Shown: positions 8,823 to 34,931, numbered from the stretch's first letter. The stretch is 64,000 nucleotides of DNA from Candidatus Spongiisociaceae bacterium (GCA_965262915.1 OZ253564.1:1472001-1536000), one strand, 5' to 3'. A program made the numbers and translations. The notes: generated by a model from the letters alone, not told the origin.

Positions 8823-8850
8823 ATGTCCGATAATGAACATTATGTAAAGC
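8823..8850 (+). other. dif-like XerC/XerD recombination site A
   Basis: ATGTCCGATAA-TGAACA-TTATGTAAAGC: 11-6-11 architecture with a XerD-type arm TTATGT and a CCGATAA arm as in actinobacterial dif. Confidence 0.8.
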
Positions 8851-8997
8851 TACGGCTGCGGTGTTTCCCCAGGTAGATGACGGTTTCGGGGTAGGGCCGT
8901 CCGGGTCGTGCATAAACCGTCCCAGCCACGGTCGAATATGCGACAGTTAATACCGGTCGACGATGGTCGGCAGAGACCCGGCTGGTTGACGAGCTCC
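8823..8997. repeat. ~175-bp repeat containing the dif-like core; inverted copy 11702-11879, degenerate inverted copy ~19453-19549
   Basis: The reverse complement of 8823-8997 aligns almost base for base with 11702-11879. Blocks ATATTC..CGTGG.TGGG, GGTTTATGCACG and CCGAAACCG recur at 19490-19549. Confidence 0.9.
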
Positions 8998-9241
8998 CGG
9001 CGGGTACCGTTAACCCCCTATGAGCAGAGTCCGCCCCCCAGGGCGCCCACCACCCACATATCCCCCCGGCCGCTACTGCGCCACCGACAGCTGAACGGCG
9101 CGCCTATCCATCTACAACCCGACCGACCACTGCAACCTCCACACCCCCCTCCGACGCCGACCCGCACTGAGCCGCCGACGCTGGTGAGACCATTCAGGCG
9201 GGTAACCGCTGTCGGCGGCCGGCCGAGCCCCCAGCGGAAAG
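8998..9241. repeat. ~245-bp block with inverted copy at ~19072-19313
   Basis: For example GGTAACCGCTGTCGGCGGCCGGCCGAGCCCCCAGCGGAA and CACCACCCACATATCCCCCCGGCCGC occur reverse-complemented at 19072-19265. Confidence 0.88.
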
Positions 9242-9268
9242 GAGTGTCCGCTGCCTGTCACCCGGGCG

Positions 9269-9353
9269 AACAGCCAAAGTATCCGGTTCCCCCCAGCACG
9301 CCGTGGCGGCGAAACTCCTCGAAGAGGGTTTCGGGCGGAAACGCCCCAAACCC
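9269..9353 (+). repeat. ~85-bp structured repeat; copies at 13203-13283 (+) and ~16835-16915 (-)
   Basis: Shared ACAGCCA..GTA.CCG.TTC.C.CAGCACGCCGTGG..GGC...GGGTTTCGGG.GG.AA.ACCC/CGCCC, including hairpins. Confidence 0.82.
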
Positions 9354-10706: not shown

Positions 10707-11851
10707 GCGAGCCGATACTCGATCTCGCGGCGTAGCGGTGCTCGACGATCCAGTTCTGCTTCGAGGACTGTTCCAAAGAGCCTGATTTCCCAGAGCGTGT
10801 CGCGTCGAAGCGCCACCATCAGCGCGTCGCCGGCGAGCTCCTCTAGGAGACGGTCGTGGCCATGTGCCTTCTGATGGAGAGCGAGGGCGTCTTGCACGAG
10901 GTATGCGAACTGCTGGCGCAAGGTGTCAACGATGTCCTCGGTGGCAGTAAACGAGAATGTCCAGACGTCGCCACTCTCGCGGAACGAATCTATGAACTCG
11001 AAAACGCGCGGCGTGTCGACGACGCCGGAGTAGTCGGCGTCGGGGTTGCTCCGCCACACACTCAACTGTGCAAGAACGTCGCTGTCGACGAAGACGTACG
11101 TGGGTACGCCCCGTGCTCGGGCTTCAAGAAATTCGAGGTTGGTGACGGACTTGTCGGTATCGGGGTCGACCGAGCCGTACCGCGCGCCGACAACCATCAC
11201 GAAGATATCGGCGTTCTCTCGGACGTTCCTCACGCTGTTGGTGACCGTCGTCTGGTTCGCGTCGATCGGGAACGAACCGTGCTCGGCCATCACGGCACGC
11301 CAACCGAGTCCCCCTATGAATTGGCGAAGCTGCGAGCGGAGATGGTTGAGGTCGTACATGGTCGAACTCACGAAGACATTTGGTGGTCGGTTCTTCACTG
11401 GCCACTCCGTTCAGTCGCAGGAGACGCCCTCGGGCACTTTAGGGCCGAATCCCGGATCACCACCCCGTCGGCGAGGACCCCGACGGGGAGCTGTGGCACT
11501 GACTTGTCCTGAGACGCTCGGCCGGCCTAACTCCCCCCTGAGCCCCGCCCAGCGGAGGGGTCCTCCGCTGGAGGGACTCAGGAGGTGGTAGGGAGGGGCG
11601 GCCTCTCCTGCCTCGCACCGAAAGGTGGCGCCGGGGGCCCCCACACCCAACGGATCCAGCGGCACCGGGGTCAGGAATCGATGCTGACCCCTCCGAACAT
11701 GCGGGAGCTTGTCTACTAGCCCGGTCTCCGCTGACCATCGTCGACCGGTATTAACCGTCGCATATTCGACCGTGGCTGGGGTGGTTTATGCACGACCTGG
11801 ACGGCCCTACCCCGAAACCGCCATCTACCTGGGGAAACACCGACGGGCGTG

Positions 11852-11879
11852 GCTTTACATAATATCTATTATCGGACAC
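11852..11879 (-). other. dif-like XerC/XerD recombination site B (inverted relative to A)
   Basis: Minus strand GTGTCCGATAA-TAGATA-TTATGTAAAGC. Arms nearly identical to site A, spacer different. Confidence 0.8.
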
Positions 11880-13110: not shown

Positions 13111-13235
13111 AGCCCTAAAGATTACCAGTTCCCCCGGGTACGCTCGACACGGGCACCGAGGCCGGATACCTCCGGTCCGCTCCTCCGCTGCCCACGACGG
13201 TCAACAGCCAAGTAACCGGTTCCCCCCAGCACGCC

Positions 13236-13775
13236 GTGGGCGGCGAAACCCTCGGGGTTTCGGGAGGGAACACCCCCAAACCCGCCTGTCCCCGACCGAC
13301 GCGAATCAGGTGGAAAGTGGTGCACGCCGCGGTAGGCGACGTGATCGCGGAGTGGGTTCGTATGGTCCGCTCCGGCCAGACGAAGCCCAGACTCGTCGAA
13401 TTCAGCACTCGCGCTGTGGCCTCAACGGATCTGCTTGAGCAGGTCCGGGCTCTGAATGCGGACAACAGAGTTGTTCCGGCCGCCCCGATCGTATTGGCTG
13501 GAGTTGCTCTTGAGATCGCACTTCGGTCCGCGGTCGAGGAACTCGATCTCACCGTCGAGGGACGGGGAAGCATCGATGCTTATGCCAGGGCGCTCCGCCA
13601 GGTCGATGTGCTGAACAGGCAGGACATGAAAGATGTCACGCAGATGGCGGGCCTTCGCAACGACGCCGCGCATGGAGTCCACGAGACACTCAGCCGTAAG
13701 GGAGCGAGCTTGATGGAACAGCAAGCGAACCTCTTCCTCGCCCGGCTAGATCAGGCCGTCCAGCAGTCGAACTGA
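13236..13775 (+). pseudogene. HEPN/DUF4145-like protein, probably 5'-truncated
   Basis: LAGVALEIALR...LRNDAAHG (Rx4H). The ORF start lies inside the 13203-13283 repeat. Confidence 0.65.
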
Positions 13776-15159: not shown

Positions 15160-16119
15160 CTAACCAGTCAGTTCGTGACGTGTGATCACGGTCCGGCCCG
15201 ATGGTGTTTCCTTGCTTGCGGGTTGTCGGTCCGTTCCGATATCGATCGTGACCAAGAAGAATGTCTTGCCGTCGTGCATGATTCTGGGCGGGAATTCGCC
15301 GTCGGGTGAGTCTTCGGACGGCCAGACCAACTGATTGTTCGAACAGTTGAACACGACGAGATAGCCGATGTTCTGCTGGTAATCGTTGGCGTAACGCAGA
15401 ACTTGGTGGAACCCTTGACGCAGGCGGCTCTTGTCCCTGCCCCGAGCCGGGTCGAAGACCTTGGCTTCGAGGACCAGCGGATCGTCCGCGTCGTCGAGGC
15501 TGACGACATCCGCCCGCCCCGACGGCGAATCGGGCTGCGAGAAGGGGAAATCCACACCCCCGTCGAACAGCGCCTCCCGCAGCCGACGGTCGAGGTTCTT
15601 CTCACCTGACCCCGTGTCACGAAGATAGGCCTGATGTAGTTCTTGTTGGCTGAACCACTCGGCTTTCCGCTTGAACCGTTGCAGCAGGTACACGACGTTG
15701 CCTGTGTCGTCGATCCGGTCATCGAGATAGTTGACAACCGGATCGAGCACGGCCTCGTTCAGATCATTGAGCATTTCGTTGAACCTCGACTCGTGGCTGA
15801 ATGCACTTCCCCACGAGATGGCTGCTCGCTGTTCAGGGTCGTACGCACACTCCTTCAGGATCCCAAGGCAGAGTTTCGCCCTGGCCGTCTCCGAAGGCGG
15901 AAACGCGATAGAACGCGACTTGGCAGCAGCGTCCTTCCATTCCCCAAAATCCGCTTCGTCGCCGGCGTCCAGTGTGTGTAACAGGGCACGGAGATACGGG
16001 TTGTCATCGAGGAACTGCAGGAACAACTGCAGTTCTGTCTCATAGTGCCGATAGTCCACCATGTGTACACGGTTCCGGCGCTGCTGCAAGCGGACACGCA
16101 AGTCGAGTAGGTACCGCAT
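15160..16119 (-). CDS. Hypothetical protein with C-terminal PD-(D/E)XK nuclease-like domain
   Basis: AGGAG before ATG 16119. GEKNLD..SGRADVV...LVLEAKVFD...QVLRY pattern. Confidence 0.65.
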   Translation of the reverse strand: MRYLLDLRVRLQQRRNRVHMVDYRHYETELQLFLQFLDDNPYLRALLHTLDAGDEADFGEWKDAAAKSRSIAFPPSETARAKLCLGILKECAYDPEQRAAISWGSAFSHESRFNEMLNDLNEAVLDPVVNYLDDRIDDTGNVVYLLQRFKRKAEWFSQQELHQAYLRDTGSGEKNLDRRLREALFDGGVDFPFSQPDSPSGRADVVSLDDADDPLVLEAKVFDPARGRDKSRLRQGFHQVLRYANDYQQNIGYLVVFNCSNNQLVWPSEDSPDGEFPPRIMHDGKTFFLVTIDIGTDRQPASKETPSGRTVITRHELTG

Positions 16120-16129
16120 TCGTAAACTC

Positions 16130-16372
16130 CTAGATCGTGATGGTGATCGTCGTGTCCAGGTTCTTGATCTCGCGCTCGAGGTCCGTGAGAGCGTTGTGGA
16201 CACTCCGACGCGTTCTGTGACCGCTAGCCCGGTCGTCGGAGAACCGTATACGTCCTTTGCAGCATGGACAGAACACCGCATCCTCCAACTGTGCCAGCCG
16301 GAACCGAACATCTACCTCGTAGCCGCACCGCGGGCACGGGACTCTCAGAAAGGCGCGATCGAAGGGGTACAC
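16130..16372 (-). CDS. Small Zn-ribbon protein
   Basis: GGAGGTG RBS then GTG. CPRC..CPCC plus a helical C-terminus; ends 10 bp upstream of the nuclease-like gene. Confidence 0.62.
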   Translation of the reverse strand: MYPFDRAFLRVPCPRCGYEVDVRFRLAQLEDAVFCPCCKGRIRFSDDRASGHRTRRSVHNALTDLEREIKNLDTTITITI

Positions 16373-16584: not shown

Positions 16585-17104
16585 GGTCGTAATTCTACAA
16601 CCCGACCCTGACAAGGGTCGGTCCCGCCGTCTCACCCGAAATCACAGCAACCGACCGCGGGTGAGGAACGCATGTGATTTCTGCACCGTTCCGGATGTTC
16701 AGGTCAGGGCCCCCTGTCTGGGTTTTGTTGTGCGAACTGGTGTCCGCAGGGGTGTGCAGATCGTGGGCGGGTTCTCCCGGCCCCCAAATCGGCCTCTAGG
16801 CCTTCGGGTTGTGTTGGTTAACGTGCTGACGGGCGGGTCGTGGGTGTTTCCGCCCGAAACCCCTCGAGGGGGAGAGCCGCCACGGCGTGCTGAGAGAATC
16901 GGCTACCTGGCTGTCCGGCCGGCCGGCGGCAGCGGACTTCCCTTCCGCTGGGAGGGACTCAGGAGGCGACGGGGAGTAGGCAGACCCAGGCACCTCTCGG
17001 CACCGAGCGCTGCCGGCCTTCCCCTAGCCGCCGACCGCTACTAGGGAGCCCCCCTCTCTGAGAAACCCGAGATGAGGGTGGCCCTTGCTCTATTCTCCAG
17101 CGAG

Positions 17105-17923
17105 ATGCAACGGCCTCCTCTTTCTGTTCGACACAACAATGAGGCCCTCGAGGCATATCGGGAACTTCATGAGGGGATCCCAGATTGGATGATGCAGGGG
17201 GTGGGCGAATGGGCTGTCCAGGTCCTTAGCCACGCCAGTGATCTGCAGGCAGCTGAACAGTATTTTCGTATAGGACTCGATTGGGCAGCCATACAGAGTT
17301 CGCACGAAGAAGGTGTCGCGCAGCTCCTCGCATTTGAGGACCTCGATGTCTTGGACTATTGCCTGGGCATCTATTACCACCCCGACCACGCGGCGGAACT
17401 CCGAGAGATCCTGGATAGATCAGGGTCGGCGTGGACGGTGGGGACAGACGACGATGAAGGGCTGTGGTGTTTGAAACGGCGCGTGGACGTGACCGTTCTG
17501 GCGGCAGCAAACGAAGAAATGGAGCAACGGAGCAATGCCGCTGAGTACCTTCGGAGGGCTTGGCACCACGTCTACGGTCGGAACCCGAACCCCAGCACTG
17601 CTTACCACGACGCCGTTCGTGCAGTAGAGGCCGCCGCCCGTCCGGTCGTGACCCCCAACGATGACCGGGCCACATTGGGCAAGATGATCCTTGCCCTCGA
17701 GGACAAGCCAGGGAAGTGGGAAACGGTAATCGGCGATGTTGACACCGTGCGGAAGATGATGGCAACCATCTGGAAGTCACAGTCCGACCGGCACGGCACC
17801 GACGACACCACCAGGTCCCTCAACGTGTCACAGCCCGCAGCCGAAGCCGCAGTCCAGATGGCCGTAACGCTGGTGCAGCTGTTCCGTACCGGGGCGATCC
17901 GGAGGGAACACGACAGCCTCTAA
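17105..17923 (+). CDS. Abortive-infection (AbiJ/Abi_C)-like protein
   Basis: LHEGIPDW N-terminus; AYHDAVRAVEAA..ATLGKMI..SDRHG..AEAAVQMAVTLV HEPN-like C-terminus. Confidence 0.55.
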   Translation: MQRPPLSVRHNNEALEAYRELHEGIPDWMMQGVGEWAVQVLSHASDLQAAEQYFRIGLDWAAIQSSHEEGVAQLLAFEDLDVLDYCLGIYYHPDHAAELREILDRSGSAWTVGTDDDEGLWCLKRRVDVTVLAAANEEMEQRSNAAEYLRRAWHHVYGRNPNPSTAYHDAVRAVEAAARPVVTPNDDRATLGKMILALEDKPGKWETVIGDVDTVRKMMATIWKSQSDRHGTDDTTRSLNVSQPAAEAAVQMAVTLVQLFRTGAIRREHDSL

Positions 17924-18090: not shown

Positions 18091-18805
18091 ATGAGCGATG
18101 ACCACGAAACGACCGAAGACCAAGCGGCAGGCGGCGACACGGTTTCCTATGAAGGGTACGTGTACGTGGCGACCAATCCTGCTATACCGAACATGGTCAA
18201 GATCGGCAGCACGACGCAACACGATCCCCGAAGCCGTATCACTGCGCTGTTCACGACCAGTGTGGCCCCTGCCGTTCGAACTGGAGTACGCGGCAGCAAT
18301 AGCGGATGATCCCGCCAGGGTTGAACGGGCGCTGCACAAGGCTTTCACACCTCAACGGCTGCATCCAAGGCGTGAGTTCTTCAAGGTCGAGCCGTACCAG
18401 GTGATCGCGATCCTCAGGCTGCTCAACGTTGCTGACGTCACTGAGCAGGCCAAGTCCGATGTTGAGGCCGAGAAATCACAGGAGGACCGGGAAGCCCTTG
18501 CGCGAGCCAGACGACCAGTGCTCAATTTCGCCGACCTAGGGCTGCCAGAAGGATCGATCCTTACGTATCTGAGAGACGAGAGAGTCAAAGCCGAGATAGT
18601 CGACGGGCGGCGTGTGCGACTTATCGAACTGCCCGAAAACAAGTACCCCGCAGTCGTGTTGGACGGCGAACCTTCGTTCCTTTCGCCGCTCTCAAGAGAC
18701 CTTCTCGGGGTTGCACGTTATGTGGGCCCCACCCGGTACTGGCGTGTTGAGGACGGACGGTCACTCCTTGAGATCTACGACGAGAAGCACGGTCCAAGGG
18801 AGTAG
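18091..18805 (+). pseudogene. GIY-YIG (T5orf172-type) nuclease, frameshifted at ~18265
   Basis: GYVYVATNPAIPNMVKIGST..TTSV | PLPFELEYA..VERALH..RREFF split across two frames. Confidence 0.8.
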
Positions 18806-19577
18806 CACACCTCTCTGCCTACCTACGCCGGCTAGACCAGCACCCCGTCAACGCCTCGGCTGCTCAAGCTCTTCGAGGGCCAACGTGGCTATGAAAACAT
18901 CGGGGGAGGAACCCTGTACGCAGCACAGGGACGTGGGTGAAATACTGTCAGTTCGGTCCCGCTACAACGAACGCCCACGGTCGAGGAACATCGTGAGCGT
19001 GCGGCTCCCGGCGGGGCTTCTTCTCTGGAGTCTGTCCACGAGAGCACTCTCGCGGACTCGATTTCTCTCCCTTCCGCTGGGGGCTCGGCCGGCCGCCGAC
19101 AGCGGTTACCGGTCCGGTGGTCTCACTAGCCTTAGCGGTTCCGTTTGGGTGGGTGTCGGTTGGGGGAGTGGAGGCGGCAGTGGTCGGCCGGGTTGTAGAT
19201 GGATAGGCGTGCTGTGCAGCTGTCGGTGGCGCAGCGGCGGCCGGGGGGATATGTGGGTGGTGGTCGGCCTTTGGGGGGTAGGACTCTGGTCATAGGGGGT
19301 TGACGGTACCCGGGAGCGGTTTCCGCTGACGGCCGGCGGCATCGGAGTATCCCTCCGTCGGGGGGCTGAGGGATCAGCCGGGCGGGCTGTTGGGGAGCTT
19401 CCGTCTCAGGTCTGCGCCGGGTGACTCGGGCGTTAGGGAGCGGGGGAACGGAGAGTCTGTAGCCTATCGTTGACTAGCGCTGTGTGGTGTATATTCAAAC
19501 GTGGGTGGGCGGGTTTATGCACGGGGCTGGCCGGCTGTTGCCGAAACCGGCTTTTACACCAACGCGATAATATAACG

Positions 19578-19943
19578 AACATCGAAACAGCCGCCCGCAA
19601 GCTGAGGCAGGGCGCGCAGGTGCGGGAAGGTCTCATCGTGGAAGAGGTTGAGGAGTTCGACTACGACCGTAGCCTCGGCACCAACGCCGAGGAGTTGGCC
19701 CTGTCTGTCCAGTTCACGGTCGGTGTGGTTGTGAGGCGTGCTCGGGTGCTTCGTACCCGAGCCCGGTTCGATGAGTGGGCGGCCACTATCCGGGTGGATA
19801 CAGATCCTGAGTTGGTGGACCGTGAACAGTTGCTGACCTGGTTGGACATTGGGGGGCGTCGTATCGGGGTGGGGAATTGGCGGCCGGAGAAGTCAGGCCA
19901 GTTCGGACGGTTCGAGGTCAAAAACATACAAACCATCTCATAG
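19578..19943 (+). pseudogene. Phage-type RAMP/Cas7-like protein, C-terminal ~120 aa (N-terminus apparently missing)
   Basis: AARKLRQG..VVVRRARVLRTRARFDEW..L..GGRRIGVGNWRPEKSGQFGRFEV, a Gly-rich C-terminal loop. The upstream part of ORF 19470 overlaps a non-coding repeat. Confidence 0.6.
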
Positions 19944-19954
19944 CGAAGACAGAC

Positions 19955-20098
19955 AGCGTGGCGTGGCTTCGCCTGGCAGGGCTGGGCTCGGCGCCGCACC
20001 GCAGAGCGTGGCTCCGCACCGCACCGAAACCGGACAGGGCCGGGGACAGTGACACACCCTGGGAAACCCGGGTTGGCCACACCCCCCGCCCCGTCCGG
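19955..20098 (+). ncRNA. Putative guide-like RNA: 14 phased (G/C/A)GC-NN pentamers plus 3' hairpin
   Basis: AGCGT GGCGT GGCTT CGCCT GGCAG GGCTG GGCTC GGCGC CGCAC CGCAG AGCGT GGCTC CGCAC CGCAC (19955-20024), followed by a stem-loop at 20030-20098. Transcription is not shown. Confidence 0.55.
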
Positions 20099-20449
20099 TC
20101 AACAGCCCTGAAGTGAACCGTACCGGGTTTCCCAGAGAGTGTTTTACTTGAGTCCAGCTAGCTGGACTCGGTTCTGCTCACGATGGTAGTTGGCCTCCTT
20201 TTCTGCTGGTGGGATGTCTCCGATGGGTTCGAGGAGCCGGCGGTGGTTGAACCAGTCGACGTATTCGAGGGTGGCGTACTCGACTTGGTCGAGGTCCTTC
20301 CACGGAGCGCGTTTGTGGATGAGTTCTGTCTTGTATAGGCCGATGACGGATTCGGCGAGGGCGTTGTCGTAGGAATCCCCAACCGAGCCGACTGATGGTT
20401 CGATGCCGGCTTCGGTGAGCCGGTTCGTGTAGCGAATGGACAGATATTG

Positions 20450-22859
<2,410 letters not shown>

Positions 22860-23129
22860 CTAATCGAGTCTCCGGAAAACCCGGTGCGGTTCAAAGAACC
22901 CTTTGACATCCCGCCGGCGGTGTCACGGAAGAACAACTCCCCCAAGTCTCAGACACCCCGGCGGCATTCGGCTGTCTAGCAACGTAGAGGCTGACCCAGC
23001 CCCACCGAAAGCTGATAGGCCTCCCAACTCCGACCTAGCAAGACAGGCACAGGCCCCGGCCACCCTTGGCACGTTCAATCCGCCATGTGTGGTTGACTGA
23101 TCTCATCCACCAGCATCTGCTAACAGTCC

Positions 23130-23883: not shown

Positions 23884-24101
23884 GAACCCTCGGAGGCCGG
23901 CACCCGGCCTGAAGGTTGATGCGAGGCTTCGTCCGGCACGTCCCGACTTCGTTATGCGGGCAAGCCTCGAGAGACTCAAGATCCCGGCTTTGCGGGCAAC
24001 GTTCGACTGGCCTTGCCAAACAGTGGCTGCACTCGAAGCTCGTGGTGGGTCACAGAAGATCGAAGAGGAGCAACGAACTGACGGTTACCCTTCCAGCCGG
24101 T

Positions 24102-26483
24102 ATGACAGAACCCTCTTCCACCCTTGGCTGGCACGGGTACCGGGTGGTTGGTGTCCTGTTCATGGCGGTACCAACCGCGGCCGGCCTTGCATGGTGGTTT
24201 GCCGAGACCCATAGCGGACCTCTACTTCGGGACGCTCTGACCGCTGCCCTAGTGCCTGTCGGATTCATCATCGCGTTCGGATTCGGATATGCGGGAAACA
24301 CGTTCTCCAGACGTCTTGCCCTGTATGGGTACGAAAGGGAGACACACCCGGCGATTCTCGTTCTTCTGTTCTTTGGCCTCGCTGTTGGAACAGTGGCTCT
24401 GATTCTTGTCTATCTGGCGCTCGGAGACAGAGACAACTTGTGCTTGGGTCCCTGTCGTCTCGCCGTCCCGCTTCCATGGATAAACGCGTACTGGCAGCCG
24501 CTACTGGTGGCGCATTCCACGATCGGCCAGTTAGCTACGGCAGGAGTAGGGATGGTGCTTGCGGGGTCAGTTCAGGTGCTCTTCGGTCTACTTCATCCAC
24601 GTCGGCTCGATGTGTACTCGCACAACCTCCTCCTCGGACGCCGCTTCGCTGCCCGGCTCCTTGACAGCTTGGTCCTCTTGGCGTCGACCTTCTGCATGAT
24701 CGAGTATGGCCCCGAGTTGCTCGTCGGCCGCTTCGGGCTGTCATGGACGGCCGCTCGAGTCACTCTCAGCTGTCTGCTCTTGGCGCTGCCCTTCTTATAC
24801 GAGGTCACTCCCCAGTTCGGCTGGAAGTGGTGGCTCGGGTTGCGGCTGGTAGCCCCTCCCGACGGTAGACCGGTCGCTATAGGGCGGTTAGCTGTACGGG
24901 CGCTCGTCACGTCACTTGTGTTCTCTCTCGGTATCGACGCGGCAGTTGTCCTTTGGACCATCGAAGGTTCGTATTTATTCTGGGTCATGGTCGGGCGGAT
25001 GCTGCTCCTGGTCGCTCTGATCCCAGCGGTGGTGCATCCACACGGCCAGGGATTCCATGACGTACTGCTGGGTACCCAAGTCCGCGGCGATCTCGATGGA
25101 GACACGGAACCGGGCCAGTCTTCCGAGTCCGAAGGGCTACGGCTCCGCTCCGCGGATTTCACTGCCGACGAGGACGATCCGTTCGCGAACGACCTACTGG
25201 ACCGTCAACCCCAGGTCGAGTATCTCTCCGCTGTGATCACGGCAACGGATAGCCCACTTGTGGTGATGGTTGACGCGCCGTGGGGTAGCGGCAAAACCGC
25301 ATTCCTAAGGATGTGCGCTGCCCACCTGCGACACCAAGGCGTTACTGTGGCGGAGTTCAACGCCTGGACCGACCAACATACCCAGCAGCCGCTCCTTGAC
25401 ATGGTCGGTGCGCTCTCGGCCCGCCTTCCAAAAGGGGCTGCCACCCGTATCGGGTCGGCTGCCTCGGGCCTGCTCACCCTGCTCACCACCGACCATCCCA
25501 GCCCAAGGATTGATTCGTGGGATGACCACAACCGGGCCGTGAGATCGTTCACCGAATCGTTAGCGGAAGTAGCGGCCGATCGCGGGCGTCTGGTCGTGAT
25601 CGTGGATGAGCTCGACCGTTGCCGACCTGAATACACACTCGGGATACTGGCGGACATCCACCATCTCTTCTCAGTAGACGGGGTCACGGTTCTGCTCGGC
25701 GTTAACCGTCGCCAACTATGTCACGCTGTGCAAGCCGTGTACGGACTCAGCTTCGATGCAGACTCGTATCTTAGGCGATTCGTCGATATCCCTATTAACT
25801 TGCCCTCCCCGAACCGCACAGAACTTGAAGCTTTCCTCGACCATCTGTACGCCGAATCCCGTCTTCACGGCCGGACTTCGCGTGGACTGGCCAAGTGGCC
25901 AGCTACGAGAGCCGTGCTCCGCCTGGTTATCGAGCTCAAGTCGTGTTCATTACGGGATCTGCAGCAGGCTGCCCATATCTACGCTCTAGCGCTGGTCAAG
26001 CGGGTTCCCGATGATCATCCGTACGATGTGTGGCAACTTTCGGTCGCAGCGATGGTCGTGTTGCGCGTCGCGGACCGGGACGCCTACGACCGCTTTGTAG
26101 TTGGCCAATCCGACAGCTTCGAGGCTCTGACCTCCGCTTACGCTGCTCTCGGGCCGGAACCACATCTGAGGCCTACGGACACGCTGCCCCATGGAACCCG
26201 AAGGGATCACTTCGCTGCCGCCTTGATCAACATCGGGTCGCGCGACGACTGGTGCGATACCATCAGCGGTGCTGAAGATGCGTTCGTAGAGCGGTACCGG
26301 CGCGCCCACGCTGCTCTCCCACAATCTATCGAGGGTTCTCCACGGGATTCGACACAGGCTGCCCGCGATGTCCTCAAGATTCTCTGCCATATAAGGAGTT
26401 GCTATCAGCCACTACCTGTCTGGCGCACCTTGGAAGCAGACAGACTGGCCAACTTGATCGACCTCGCTGTCGATCTCCGATGA
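24102..26483 (+). CDS. Multi-TM RDD-domain / KAP-family P-loop NTPase fusion
   Basis: RRFAARLLD..KWWLGLRLV..QGFHD (RDD); DAPWGSGKT, FNAW, VIVDELDRC, YLRRFVD (KAP). Start uncertain; ORF is open from 23916. Confidence 0.8.
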   Translation: MTEPSSTLGWHGYRVVGVLFMAVPTAAGLAWWFAETHSGPLLRDALTAALVPVGFIIAFGFGYAGNTFSRRLALYGYERETHPAILVLLFFGLAVGTVALILVYLALGDRDNLCLGPCRLAVPLPWINAYWQPLLVAHSTIGQLATAGVGMVLAGSVQVLFGLLHPRRLDVYSHNLLLGRRFAARLLDSLVLLASTFCMIEYGPELLVGRFGLSWTAARVTLSCLLLALPFLYEVTPQFGWKWWLGLRLVAPPDGRPVAIGRLAVRALVTSLVFSLGIDAAVVLWTIEGSYLFWVMVGRMLLLVALIPAVVHPHGQGFHDVLLGTQVRGDLDGDTEPGQSSESEGLRLRSADFTADEDDPFANDLLDRQPQVEYLSAVITATDSPLVVMVDAPWGSGKTAFLRMCAAHLRHQGVTVAEFNAWTDQHTQQPLLDMVGALSARLPKGAATRIGSAASGLLTLLTTDHPSPRIDSWDDHNRAVRSFTESLAEVAADRGRLVVIVDELDRCRPEYTLGILADIHHLFSVDGVTVLLGVNRRQLCHAVQAVYGLSFDADSYLRRFVDIPINLPSPNRTELEAFLDHLYAESRLHGRTSRGLAKWPATRAVLRLVIELKSCSLRDLQQAAHIYALALVKRVPDDHPYDVWQLSVAAMVVLRVADRDAYDRFVVGQSDSFEALTSAYAALGPEPHLRPTDTLPHGTRRDHFAAALINIGSRDDWCDTISGAEDAFVERYRRAHAALPQSIEGSPRDSTQAARDVLKILCHIRSCYQPLPVWRTLEADRLANLIDLAVDLR

Positions 26484-29742: not shown

Positions 29743-30469
29743 AGCACCTCCTGATGGGAGCCAAGTATACAGAGGAGTTGATACCCCTTGCCTCGGGGAG
29801 TCAGTTCACTGTGATCAGTTGATGTGACGGTTCTACGGCGAATACATAAGGGATCTATATCTCTCGTGCTCTGAGATGGGCAACGCTTTAGTGGTTGGTT
29901 TCTCACCTGTGTCTGAGCCTCACTGTGCGCCATCCAAACCCACCGACCTGCGCATAATCGGCTCGCAGCGCCTTCTCAGCGCCTGAAAACGAACTGCGTA
30001 TAACAGGGAGAGGGGACGCATTGGTCGTTGGTGACTGTCGAGTTCGCGGGCAGAGTCCCACGATGCAGCACTTCGACCTATGACTCCGGGGCGAGGACTC
30101 TGTATTGTGATCGGCCATGTAGAGCGGGTCCTCTCGTGCGACACGACGCGGACTTCCTCCCTGCCGAGCCGGATGTGAATGGATGACGAGCCGCGACCCG
30201 ACCAAGCGCACGCCTCCGCCCGTCGTCGTGAACCACCAGCGAAGTATTGAATTGGATTCCAATCACTTGTTAACCATCCGTCAGCCGCTGCCGGTATCAG
30301 GCTGCTGCTTCGATCTCGGGGCGCTCCTTCACCGCTTCCAGCGGCGGGTCACTCGTGGCTTTGGCCTGGGACGGCACCGTGTTCGGTGTCTTCCCTCCCT
30401 GTTTCAGACGGAAACGGGGGGGCATAGACCCAGCAGTCCGAACTGGCGGTTGGACGATGCTCGGATGAA

Positions 30470-31163
<694 letters not shown>

Positions 31164-31167
31164 TAGT

Positions 31168-31968
31168 GTAGGGTCCGGGGCGCCCCTCCTGCTTTTCAGC
31201 TGGTGGGTTTCCCCGGCCCGCCCTCCGAACCGGACGTGCAACTTCGGGTGCATCCGGCTCTCCATGTGTTCATGCCACTGGTGGTTCAGCCTGTGTCTGC
31301 ATCACACGTACCCGCCGCCCAGCCTCTCCGAGGTCAGGCCACGGTGCGCCGGTATTCACCAGCGACCTCCGCGATCAGCAGTTCGGCTACCAACACACTG
31401 GACCCCTTCGCCATGTGACCGGCTTTCCCGGCCTCGGACTACTACGGGTCCTCCGCCCCATCCCACCGGCATCAGCCGGCAACAAGCCTTCCCGCCGACC
31501 GACAAGACGCCGGCCGGTGAGGGCACCGGGGGGATGGTTCCCACGTTCACTTTCCAACCGTTCGACAGGGTCGGCGCCCAGCTATGCCCCTGCAACATCG
31601 CCACGGCTACGCCGCAGGCCCACACCGTGGCCTCCCGGTCGGCGATATCAACCGACCAAAGAGTCACCGCACACAACAATTGCTGTGCGAGTGTGCGCTG
31701 CTACGCGGCCCTGATCCGCCAGGTTCGAGCCGCTGGGTTGTCTTGAGGAGCTTTCAGACGCTGGTTCCTCACGTACGCCTTTCTGTCTTGCTTGCCGGAC
31801 CCGGACCATCTGGCAGTACTGGTCCGTCCCATCGTTGTCAGGGCTGCTTCCCACCCAAACCCCCCGTTCCACAGGGTCCAGGCTGCCCTCAGCTTCACGC
31901 GCACGCTGCAACGAGCACGCAGCGGTGTCCTTTCACCACCGCACGGTTAGAAACGCCTCGTGGCGCTC
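31168..31968 (-). ncRNA. Group II intron lacking its RT ORF (~800 nt)
   Basis: 5' end GAGCGCCACGAGGCG; domain V GAGCCGGATGCACCCGAAGTTGCACGTCCGGTTC; domain VI ending ..CCCGGACCCTAC. Only VNTGAPWPDLGEA and ..HMESRM ORF stubs remain. Confidence 0.85.
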
Positions 31969-32351
31969 GATATCCGACACCCAGATTCGGTCCGGTCCGC
32001 TTGCGGTGAACTCTCTGCGTACCAGGTCGGGCGCCGCGGCCCGTTCGGGATTCGCCTTGGTGGTGGCAACCCTGCGGCGGCGGTGAACCCCCTGGATAGG
32101 GCCTGGCGCATGAGGCGGGCTACCCGTTTGCGGCCGACTGAGACACCGTCGGCTGCCAGCTCGGCGTGGACACGGGGCGCCCCATAGGTGCCCCGCGACC
32201 GGCTGTGGATATCGACGATCCGGTCCCGGAGTGCCCGATCAGCTTGTTCCCGGGCGGATGGGCGACGGCTGAGCCACGCGTAGTAGCCGCTGGCCGAGCA
32301 CACCCAGGAGCTCACACATGCGCCGCACCGAATGAGAGGCCTGGTTAGCTT

Positions 32352-32696: not shown

Positions 32697-33218
32697 GTCA
32701 TAGAATGTCCACCGAAGCGGGTCAACCTCAGTCTCCTAGGTGACCGCTGGCGCCGCACAGTGCTCGACTCTTGGCTGATCCGTGCCAAAGGTGGATGCGG
32801 CTGGCTGTTCACGACCCGGGAAGACGCTCGGCTGATCGCACGGCGAAGCATCTGTGCCTCGACCCGTCGGCTCGGGCGGGGACCAGCCGGGCTATGGCCC
32901 TCTGCTGCCGAGCCGAGCTACTCACAATCCAAGATGTGGCGGTCCGGCTGGGCCAGATCATGTGGCTCGACGACCACCTCACATTGCATACAACTGTGCT
33001 GCGGTTTGTACGCCCCTGACTAGAAATGCCTCCAGTCTGGCCAGATTGACGGGCGATTGTATACAAAGGTATAGTTCCGAAGTACTGCCAAGCCGACTGT
33101 CGGAGGTCGAGCGATGTGCAGCCGACGCTGGGGTCCTTCGAACGATCTGTTTCGGTACCGGTTGTCATTCATCTCCCGCCGTCTCGGTGAGATCGCTCGA
33201 ACCCAAAGGGAGGAAGCT

Positions 33219-34931
33219 ATGAGATTCAGAGTCGCGACGCGATGGATCGCGATGTTGGCCGTCGTTGCTCTGCTGGCCGCGGCGTGCGCGACGACGACGA
33301 CGACCACAACAACGGCCGTCGCCACAACAACGGCCGTCGCCACAACAACGGCCGTCGCCACAACAACGGCCGTCGCCACAACAACGGCCGTCGCCACAAC
33401 AACGGCTTCCGCGCCTACCGCGGACACGCAGCTTGTGATAGGAGATCCACAGGAGCCGGATGTCTTGAACCCGTGGCTGTCAAATAGCACGGCACCGTGG
33501 TTCCAGACCTTCCTGTTTGACTCGTTGCTCGCAATCGACGACAACGCCGAGTACGTTCCGCGCCTCGCCGAAGAGGTACCCACTCTTGACAACGGGGGGA
33601 TCTCGAGCGACTTGCGGACGTATACGTTCAGGCTTCGGAGCGACGCGCGGTGGCACGATGGCGAACCCGTTACATCCGACGATGTCGCCTTCACCTATGG
33701 TGCTGCGGTGAATCCGGACTTCGAGATCACTCAGCGCGCCGGCTACGACCAGATCGAGGCAGTCGAGACTCCCGATGAACGCACTGTCGTCTTCCGGCTG
33801 CGGGAGCCGAACGCAGCGTTCCTGGAACTGTGGTCGTACGCGGGATACAACCCGATTCTCCCGCAGCATGCCTTTGAAGGTGAGGACTTCAACACGAGTT
33901 CCCTCAACCGGCAGCCAATCGGGTCCGGTCCATTCAAACTCGTGGAGTGGAAGACCGGAAGCAGCCTGACCTTGGAGGCTAACGAGGATTACTACCTCGG
34001 AGCCCCGCAGATTGCCCGCATCATCTACCTTATCGTCCCCAACTTCGAGACACTCCGGATTATGATGGACACCGGCGAGATCGACATGCGTTTCCTCTTG
34101 GAGACTGCGGAGATCGCCGATGTTGAGGCCATGTCTGGTTGGCGCGTCTACTCAGCACCTGCAACAGCCTTTTTCCACTTCATGTTGAACAACAGCAGCC
34201 GGGTGCTCTCCGACGAGCGCGTAAGGCACGCGCTGTCAGCTGCCGTTGACAAGGAAGCGATAGTGGAGAGCCTGCTTCGCGGCACAATGGAGCCTCACTG
34301 GTCTCCAGTGCCCCGTGCATCATGGGCCTTCAAGGAGGTGGAATCCCGGGATGAGTACGACCCAGCACGAGCGATGGAGCTAATCGAGGAGGCTGGCTGG
34401 GTCGCCAATGCCGACGGGACACGTACGAAGGATGGTGAGAAGCTGTCACTTCGTGCCGTACATATTGGAGGTCAACCGGAACGCGATCAAGTCCTTGCCG
34501 TCGTGCAGCAGATGTGGCAGGCGGTGGGAATCGAGGTTCGGATTGAGCAGGTGGATGTAGGCGCGTTCGTTAAAGCTGTAAACACGGGCGACTACGACGT
34601 CTCATACGTGTACTGGTTGTTCAGCCCCGATCCAGACTCCCTGACTAGCCGCTACTCTTCCGGCGGTCAGACATGGCTCCAGCTTCCTGCTGAGGTCGTC
34701 GCTGAATATGACGCCCTCTTCGAGCGGGGACGCCTTACCGCTGACCGCGATGAGCGGCGCGAAGTGTACGGCACCCTTCAGGACCTGGTTGCCGAGCGCG
34801 CTCACAACGTCTTCATGTTCAATCGTGTGTTCTTTGACGCGGTCAAAGAGTCGGTGGGGGGCTATAAGCCGAACCCCACGCGCGCAACGAACATGTGGAA
34901 CGCTTATGAATGGACGGTGTCGGGGTCCTAA
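33219..34931 (+). CDS. ABC transporter peptide-family (SBP_5) substrate-binding lipoprotein
   Basis: GGAGG RBS; lipobox LAAAC; YTFRLR..WHDGEPVTSDDVAFT; PIGSGPFKL. Confidence 0.93.
   Translation: MRFRVATRWIAMLAVVALLAAACATTTTTTTTAVATTTAVATTTAVATTTAVATTTAVATTTASAPTADTQLVIGDPQEPDVLNPWLSNSTAPWFQTFLFDSLLAIDDNAEYVPRLAEEVPTLDNGGISSDLRTYTFRLRSDARWHDGEPVTSDDVAFTYGAAVNPDFEITQRAGYDQIEAVETPDERTVVFRLREPNAAFLELWSYAGYNPILPQHAFEGEDFNTSSLNRQPIGSGPFKLVEWKTGSSLTLEANEDYYLGAPQIARIIYLIVPNFETLRIMMDTGEIDMRFLLETAEIADVEAMSGWRVYSAPATAFFHFMLNNSSRVLSDERVRHALSAAVDKEAIVESLLRGTMEPHWSPVPRASWAFKEVESRDEYDPARAMELIEEAGWVANADGTRTKDGEKLSLRAVHIGGQPERDQVLAVVQQMWQAVGIEVRIEQVDVGAFVKAVNTGDYDVSYVYWLFSPDPDSLTSRYSSGGQTWLQLPAEVVAEYDALFERGRLTADRDERREVYGTLQDLVAERAHNVFMFNRVFFDAVKESVGGYKPNPTRATNMWNAYEWTVSGS
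33306..33406 (+). repeat. Intragenic 18-bp tandem repeat (ACAACAACGGCCGTCGCC) x5.6
   Basis: Encodes a TTTAVA linker after the lipobox. Confidence 0.95.

Follow-up and report, generated by a model that had tools for sequence, protein, structure and literature searches.

A 5'-truncated vipr gene with an adjoining pentamer-repeat RNA gene, probable remnant of a stand-alone VIPR locus in a chromosomal island rich in insertion sequences

A gene fragment for a RAMP/Cas7-like protein that is closely followed by a phased tract of pentamers raises the questions whether the two belong to one RNA-guided system, which system this would be and whether this copy can still act. The locus lies in a stretch of 64 kb, referred to here as the window, which was analysed over its whole length. 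The original prediction had read the arrangement as a candidate non-CRISPR RNA-guided system and possible relic, and had pointed out a resemblance to VIPR-type systems. VIPR (Viral Interference Programmable Repeat), a CRISPR-like system for RNA-guided DNA silencing, has been presented in preprints since April 2026 (10.64898/2026.04.26.720920, 10.64898/2026.04.26.720927), and the novelty implied for the window locus therefore falls away.

According to the available parts of these preprints, Vipr proteins co-purify with vrRNAs of ~100 nt that consist of 9-16 YNNGG repeats and a constant tail; base pairs with double-stranded DNA are formed at the NN positions, one base of the target is left out at each unit, and binding represses transcription (10.64898/2026.04.26.720920). 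Each repeat is covered by one Vipr protomer, whose pockets receive the flipped fixed triplet (10.64898/2026.04.26.720927). In nature the system is directed against competing phages and satellites. Seven VIPR types are distinguished, and some clades have related consensuses including YNNNG, NNNGG and NNNNG. About 71% of the published systems reside in phages or proviruses and about a quarter are chromosomal; the operon typically includes an accessory vap gene, although some systems stand alone (10.64898/2026.04.26.720920).

The open reading frame 19470..19943 (+) ends with the Gly-rich loop that had been predicted and with a TAG stop codon at 19941-19943. A protein search with this 157-aa ORF gave 374 candidates, 285 of which were relatives at E ≤ 0.01; nearly all of them are 197-200 aa long and cover only ~77% of the ORF. 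An exhaustive search among representative proteins yielded 1862 matches at E ≤ 1e-3, 165 at E ≤ 1e-10 and 13 at E ≤ 1e-30, typically spanning the representatives' own residues ~78-198. When the fragment was compared with all PDB sequences, the sole meaningful match was chain D of entry 36pp, 'SUSP1 Vipr protein' (E 6.8e-8), and CRISPR RAMPs were absent from the matches at E ≤ 10. The same chain was found with E 1.8e-18 by a family profile (A2) built from 30 full-length relatives, positions 4-193 of 198 aligning with its residues 5-189. The vipr fragment encodes the thumb arginine and the G-loop (GVGNWRP), and the alignment of the Vipr family shows the thumb arginine and the W-R of the G-loop to be conserved.

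The fold was assessed on P0002, a full-length relative of 198 aa, whose alignment-based AlphaFold model reached a pLDDT of 90.5 and a pTM of 0.85. In a Foldseek search of a PDB library with the state of 8 April 2026, the model was closest to type VII Cas7 and to the Csm3 of type III (E from 4e-5 upwards, TM ~0.5), and the expected RRM/RAMP fold was thus recovered. Because of the sequence and profile matches to 36pp and the Cas7/Csm3-like fold, the window protein is a Vipr, a minimal RAMP, of which only the C-terminal 121 residues (61%, about two thirds) are encoded. Both the RAMP/Cas7-like character of the protein and the resemblance to VIPR were confirmed by these matches. Pfam and PADLOC contained no family for the window ORF or for full-length P0002, and Rfam gave no family at E ≤ 1 over 18800-20200, so that none of the three collections had a model naming the protein or the RNA.

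The homology to the ~198-aa relatives begins exactly at nt 19578, which corresponds to residue 78. A tblastn search with full-length P0002 found residues 78-198 at 97.5% identity, and neither a trace of residues 1-77 nor a second vipr copy anywhere in the 64-kb window. Where a complete vipr gene encodes ~198 residues, the window copy comprises residues 78-198 only. The N-terminus is missing, as the original prediction had noticed, and its suggestion of a relic fits the loss of codons 1-77. The break falls within helix 72-85 of the P0002 model, according to which the first RRM strand(s), the helical bundle and half of helix-1 would have been lost with these codons. Because codons 1-77 are lost, the window gene yields no working protein, and for this reason the locus is unable to act alone.

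Upstream of the break the reading frame continues into sequence that belongs to a set of repeat modules spread over the window: positions 19440-19560 align directly with 11711-11850 and in inverted orientation with 8865-8990. The truncation was likely caused by a rearrangement that involved such a module, as we infer from this junction. The modules (8824-9353, 11702-11878, 13184-13283, 16842-16952, 19067-19312 and 19440-19577) form an apparently non-coding mosaic, share 79-90% identity, occur in both orientations scattered through the island and had no match in Rfam. One of them stops within ~10 nt of the truncation point. The features of the locus are compiled in Table 1.

Table 1. Coordinates of the vipr remnant, its RNA gene and the adjoining elements in the window
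Feature	Position	Strand	Basis or remark
In-frame ORF extension, non-vipr, part of a repeat module	19470..19577	+	No family homology upstream of 19578
vipr 3' fragment (codons 78-198 and TAG stop)	19578..19943	+	97.5% identity to P0002 residues 78-198; match to PDB 36pp_D
Spacer of 11 nt between stop codon and repeat tract	19944..19954	+	Median gap in relatives 17 nt
vrRNA repeat region, 14 NGC/NN pentamers	19955..20024	+	Same register as the L001 tract (GGC/NN)
vrRNA 3' tail: junction motif, then long imperfect hairpin 20029-20099	20025..20099	+	Fold z -4.51; alignment with L001
Left target-site duplication of IS3, 3 bp (AAG)	20111..20113	.	Right copy 22894-22896
IS3-family element, limit of the locus, 14 nt beyond the tail	20114..22893	-	Inverted repeats 20114-20150 / 22857-22893

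The pentamer tract proved to be exactly as predicted, with 14 units beginning 11 bp after the stop codon, G and C fixed at positions 2 and 3 in 14/14 units, and the triplets GGC (seven units), CGC (five) and AGC (two). No other NGCNN run in the 64-kb window reaches 6 units; its image on the minus strand is due to the palindromic GC. Compared with the published systems, an RNA gene of 14 units located 11 nt past the vipr stop has the make-up of a vrRNA gene and fits the related consensus YNNNG. The large hairpin announced behind the tract was located at 20029-20099, with a minimum free energy of -44.5 kcal/mol and a z-score of -4.51, none of 200 shuffled sequences being as stable; folding of the whole 167 nt from 19944 to 20110 gave a z-score of only -1.79.

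If the tract is part of a VIPR locus, related vipr genes should be accompanied by similar RNA genes. A scan of genome contigs matched 152 stretches, 116 of which encode a relative, and the best 80 of these 116 loci (L001-L080) were kept. They stem from MAG records, have 51-80% protein identity and are labelled Dehalococcoidia, Caldilineaceae, Binatia, Vicinamibacterales, Alpha- and Gammaproteobacteria and Acidimicrobiia. GGYNN runs of at least 5 units were present on the coding strand within 600 nt downstream of the vipr gene in 67 of 79 related loci, one locus with less than 500 nt of flank being left out. The controls gave 0/79 on the opposite strand, 8/79 upstream on the plus strand and 2/79 upstream on the minus strand; at two sites 4.4-5 kb away the count was 0/72 each, after exclusion of eight loci with too short a flank. 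A clean downstream tract was absent in 12 of the 79 loci, some of which have short or interrupted ones. Adjacent pentamer tracts, as expected for homologues, are thus present in most of these loci.

The closest locus with DNA available, L001 (80% protein identity), has its tract in register with that of the window. Positions G2 and C3 are the same in 28/28 cases and the NN bases in 7/28, which agrees with the lineage-variable dinucleotides that had been anticipated; throughout the relatives, positions 4 and 5 have mixed base frequencies. Also common to the two loci are the junction motif behind the final unit and the stem at the base of the tail. Tails at the same place fold strongly in L001, L004, L013 and L018 (z -3.3 to -7.1), while the L006 tail is weak (z -1.87) and L017 gave z -1.90 with a folded span that missed its stem. 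The tail sequences differ between the other loci, and most of those folded are strong hairpins.

The arrangement of the RNA genes varies in the family. Many relatives have arrays in which short linkers connect several vrRNA-like tracts, and as many as 102 units are contained in 1.2 kb. Seven tracts each lie downstream of vipr in L050, L070 and L078, five each in L011, L014 and L016, and one in the window. Rfam recognized no family in the vrRNA-like arrays of 11 related loci. In the Caldilineaceae loci L046-L049 and L053, a common spacer of ~21 nt separates the tracts, ~60-90 nt past the vipr stop; it looks like a processing element. A hammerhead ribozyme at this place was rejected, as Rfam gave no match at the gathering score in the five loci or, in L048 only, at E ≤ 1.

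Could the tract be a product of chance in GC-rich DNA, the end of an insertion sequence or a coding repeat, placed next to a stray Cas7 from a lost CRISPR-Cas locus? The window has a G+C content of 62.7%, the region is full of IS elements, and the fold of the protein does match Cas7 and Csm3. When the whole window was shuffled 200 times with its dinucleotide composition preserved, the longest NGCNN run on either strand was 3-6 units and never exceeded 6, against 14 in the native sequence. The tract is in register with tracts that follow orthologous genes. The boundary of the IS3 element and its 3-bp duplication lie outside the tail. The sequence match is specific to Vipr, no CRISPR RAMP in the PDB matching at E ≤ 10, and the absence of cas1/cas2, other cas genes and a CRISPR array, stated in the original prediction, was corroborated in the window by Pfam searches of 61 ORFs and a direct-repeat scan. 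On the shuffles, the orthologous tracts, the IS3 boundary and the Vipr match, a chance repeat, an IS end and a CRISPR Cas7 remnant were rejected; this origin of the locus is exceedingly improbable.

We conclude with a probability of roughly 0.88 that the window locus, with its 5'-truncated vipr gene and its vrRNA gene, is what is left of a VIPR locus of the stand-alone kind. Most likely it is a relic. In the intact relatives, the gene for a Vipr of ~198 aa is followed directly by one or more vrRNA genes, each of them a run of pentamers with a fixed triplet and two free bases that is capped by a structured tail. By analogy with SUSP1, one Vipr protomer would bind each pentamer with the triplet flipped into its pockets, the NN bases of successive units would form base pairs with double-stranded DNA, passing over every third base of the target, and binding would silence the transcription of competing mobile elements. 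For the window locus, vrRNA transcription, filament assembly and gapped DNA pairing are likewise inferred from the known systems. Here vipr has lost codons 1-77, and a single, structurally whole vrRNA gene is left between a repeat module and the IS3/IS30 insertion. Counted against a VIPR remnant were the promoter-like site, target, phage genes and vap gene missing from the searches reported here, the 12/79 loci without a clean tract, and the half of the window units that depart from GGY at the first base.

The good condition of the RNA gene suggests an alternative fate, namely that vipr died and the vrRNA was kept as a functional solo RNA, which is loaded in trans on a Vipr from another genomic copy or from an invading element and acts as guide or decoy. 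Solo vrRNAs with such roles have been described in satellites and in 346 VIPR-null phages related to SUSP1 (10.64898/2026.10.15.759431, as far as the preprint is available). The window vrRNA looks whole, with 14 units in the published range of 9-16, G2 and C3 in 14/14 units and both junction motif and tail hairpin intact, and the IS3 element was inserted 14 nt beyond the tail and not inside it. The seven departures from GGY are all at one position, and the tract is therefore unlike a product of random decay. Yet no second vipr was found within the 64-kb window, and a sigma-70 scan of 19000-20300 detected no promoter-like site. Since the vipr fragment is still 97.5% identical to an intact relative, the truncation may be recent, and the RNA gene may then have had too little time to decay.

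The searches for a target in the window and the 80 related loci also speak against a solo guide. Under the 1-nt-skip (xNN) rule the best sites matched 17/28 NN bases in the window and 19/28 in the 80 loci, and permuted guides reached 17-21. Rules with 0-, 2- and 3-nt skips, applied to the same sequences, gave nothing above the permuted-guide controls; the match under the 3-nt-skip rule was the tract itself. Exploratory triplet rules, in which the variable first base served as third reading base, predicted no target either. A functional solo vrRNA is unlikely on this balance.

The free first base of the window repeats is the feature of this locus that is worth pursuing, together with the coupled replacement of the two residues by which it is recognized. 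In relatives, the first position is G in 1727/1864 units (92.7%), counted in runs defined by G2 and Y3; the window has G in 7/14 units (binomial P 2.5e-5). With a definition that gives the three fixed positions equal weight (at least 2 of them match, runs of at least 8 units), 65 loci provided 2349 units, of which 1889 were perfect GGY. Single mismatches were evenly spread over G1 (167), G2 (142) and Y3 (151). The seven mismatches in the window are all at G1, with 0/14 at G2 and 0/14 at C3, for which the probability is 0.363^7 = 8e-4. In SUSP1, perturbed GGY triplets abolished silencing (10.64898/2026.04.26.720920). The available part of the structural study assigns the reading of G1 to H17 and D177 of SUSP1 Vipr and of G2 to R138 and W178, and includes R179 in the Y3 pocket (10.64898/2026.04.26.720927).

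H17 and D177 align with family positions 16 and 177 in a profile alignment at ~25-30% identity, which limits the certainty of this mapping. In a survey of residues that aligned 208 of 269 proteins (150-260 aa, 61 being left out by length), 142/208 had H/D at 16/177. The 13 cluster representatives closest to the window fragment (P0002-P0014, with identities of 84% or more over residues 78-198) have N or S at position 177 without exception, and position 16 is D in ten, E in one and L in one; the combinations are D/N in eight, D/S in two and E/N, L/N and -/N in one each. The window encodes N at 177, and its own truncated ORF (P0001) lacks residue 16. Among the relatives at the top of the list, every one with an identity of 82% or less has H/D.

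These observations suggest a variant code in which the subclade, with both G1-reading residues replaced, reads NGC/NN and not GGY/NN. The variable first base would then be native and not damage, a view compatible with a relic as well as with a solo vrRNA. Degenerate consensuses are on record: apart from YNNNG (10.64898/2026.04.26.720920), the available part of a further preprint reports non-canonical triplets in 21/99 period-5 clusters, some degenerate at one position, such as WGT/NN and TGH/NN, besides GAC/NN and CAC/NN (10.64898/2026.10.21.760802). The link is supported by loci with N at 16, in which G1 was G in 58/68 units as compared with 1622/1745 units with H (Fisher p 0.029). On the other hand, L067 combines N177 with H16 and yet has G at the first position in 18/18 units, and a tract of the subclade was seen in the window only (n = 1), a protein search with an ORF that runs across this tract giving 0 matches. 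We regard the variant code as a tentative explanation whose chances are somewhat below even. More doubtful still is the further-reaching version, in which the lock between protein and repeat was re-cut in the subclade (H to D at 16, D to N at 177), the repeat is now NGC/NN with a third base freed per unit, and the surviving vrRNA may serve as solo guide for a Vipr made elsewhere in the genome. The paired replacement of the G1-reading residues coincides with a free first repeat base and is a testable lead on how the triplet is specified; if it holds, the residues to change for an altered repeat specificity of Vipr would be identified.

The VIPR remnant in the window resembles the type II VIPR of SUSP1 and of the P. 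fulva prophage in its homologous Vipr (PDB 36pp), the adjacent pentamer-repeat RNA gene with 14 units (9-16 in the published systems), the hypervariable NN bases, the structured 3' tail and the lack of cas genes and CRISPR array. Sequence identity of the window and family proteins to SUSP1 Vipr is ~25-30%. Unlike these systems, the window gene is 5'-truncated, its family has no conserved vap gene, the first repeat base is variable (7/14 G), the tail is a long hairpin, and the locus resides in an IS-rich chromosomal island beside candidate defence genes with no recognisable phage. As in the solo vrRNAs of F5 satellites and VIPR-null SUSP1-like phages, a deletion left a vrRNA gene without a working vipr. 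The VIPR-null phages, in the available description, have cleanly lost vipr and vap1, whereas about two thirds of the window vipr remain, and unlike solo vrRNAs the window tract has neither a predicted target nor a sign of Vipr in trans. With the published non-canonical repeats it shares the degeneracy of one of three fixed positions, its units being YNNNG in the YNNGG notation; the link to D16/N177 is absent from the available parts of the published descriptions of such repeats. The RRM, thumb and G-loop fold is common to the Cas7, Csm3 and type VII Cas7 proteins of class 1 CRISPR systems, and by analogy one protomer would cover a fixed interval of guide RNA as in their backbone RAMPs. The differences to these are the missing array, cas1/cas2 and other cas genes, a footprint of 5 nt and not 6 nt, and a sequence identity of ~10-13%.

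This kind of system is already described, and the window copy represents a large stand-alone family in truncated form; taken by itself, it is a known system in a damaged state. VIPR has been known for months only, and each natural variant maps what the system tolerates. The present one belongs to a stand-alone family of vipr and vrRNA with no accessory gene, which is spread over MAGs with the labels Chloroflexota, Binatia, Vicinamibacterales, Proteobacteria and Acidimicrobiia, and is an example of VIPR decay in IS-rich chromosomal islands in which the guide gene survives.

No neighbouring gene that could be an accessory (vap) gene is conserved in the family. The largest cluster of neighbours comprised 8/80 loci and consisted partly of spurious ORFs, and the window's own neighbours were outside that cluster. 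In the absence of a conserved neighbour, the family therefore consists of vipr and vrRNA only. The ~198-aa Vipr occurs in MAG records with at least five phylum labels at 51-80% identity, and some genomes have two vipr copies (L057 and L068 on one contig, L069 and L075 on another). Occurrence across phyla and two copies in some genomes point to horizontal spread of the family.

Distant full-length relatives with 26-32% identity are carried by 132 phage records. Two actinophage relatives, in Gordonia phage Trine (L081) and Mycobacterium phage LittleE (L082), have H/D at 16/177 and clean GGC tracts. In these VIPR loci (2077-2400 of L081, 1280-1480 of L082), tRNA-like elements that include a T-arm-like hairpin come after the GGC/NN tracts; ARAGORN recognized one odd tRNA at 2289-2357 of L081. 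The Trine array is partly annotated as a protein gene (gp40), and the LittleE tract is located upstream of vipr.

Downstream of the window vrRNA, the IS3-family element contains an ALIL frameshift pseudoknot at 22447-22563. Its orfB is cut into 20144-20731 and 21769-22521 by a nested IS30-family element with a transposase ORF at 20457-21854; the Pfam matches of the two elements were rve, HTH_21, HTH_Tnp_1 and HTH_38. The apex of the tail hairpin (20052-20071) is complementary in 18/20 positions to the inner part of the left inverted repeat of IS3 (20123-20142), 51 nt apart, which could reflect insertion beside a sequence similar to the inverted repeat, or chance.

The region from 5.5 to 33 kb holds copies of IS30, IS5 and IS3, a group II intron remnant and PADLOC-candidate genes, and the right half of the window holds housekeeping genes; phage-type Pfam families were absent from the 61 ORFs of the window. 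A T5orf172/MUG113-domain protein at 18098-18805 corresponds to the PADLOC candidate PDC-S57 (E 1.2e-35). At 23916-26483, a P-loop NTPase of the KAP family that includes an RDD domain corresponds to PDC-S20 (E 5.8e-68). Weaker PADLOC matches were PDC-S32 (17072-17923) and PDC-M14B (15160-16311). Domain V/VI of a group II intron lies at 31168-31262 (-) with 41.5 bits (gathering score 40) and is adjoined by IS3-type HTH fragments; among the ORFs at 29903-32315, Pfam detected no reverse transcriptase. Within a solute-binding-protein gene (33114-34931), an 18-nt tandem repeat of ~7 copies at 33286-33429 probably encodes a low-complexity linker.
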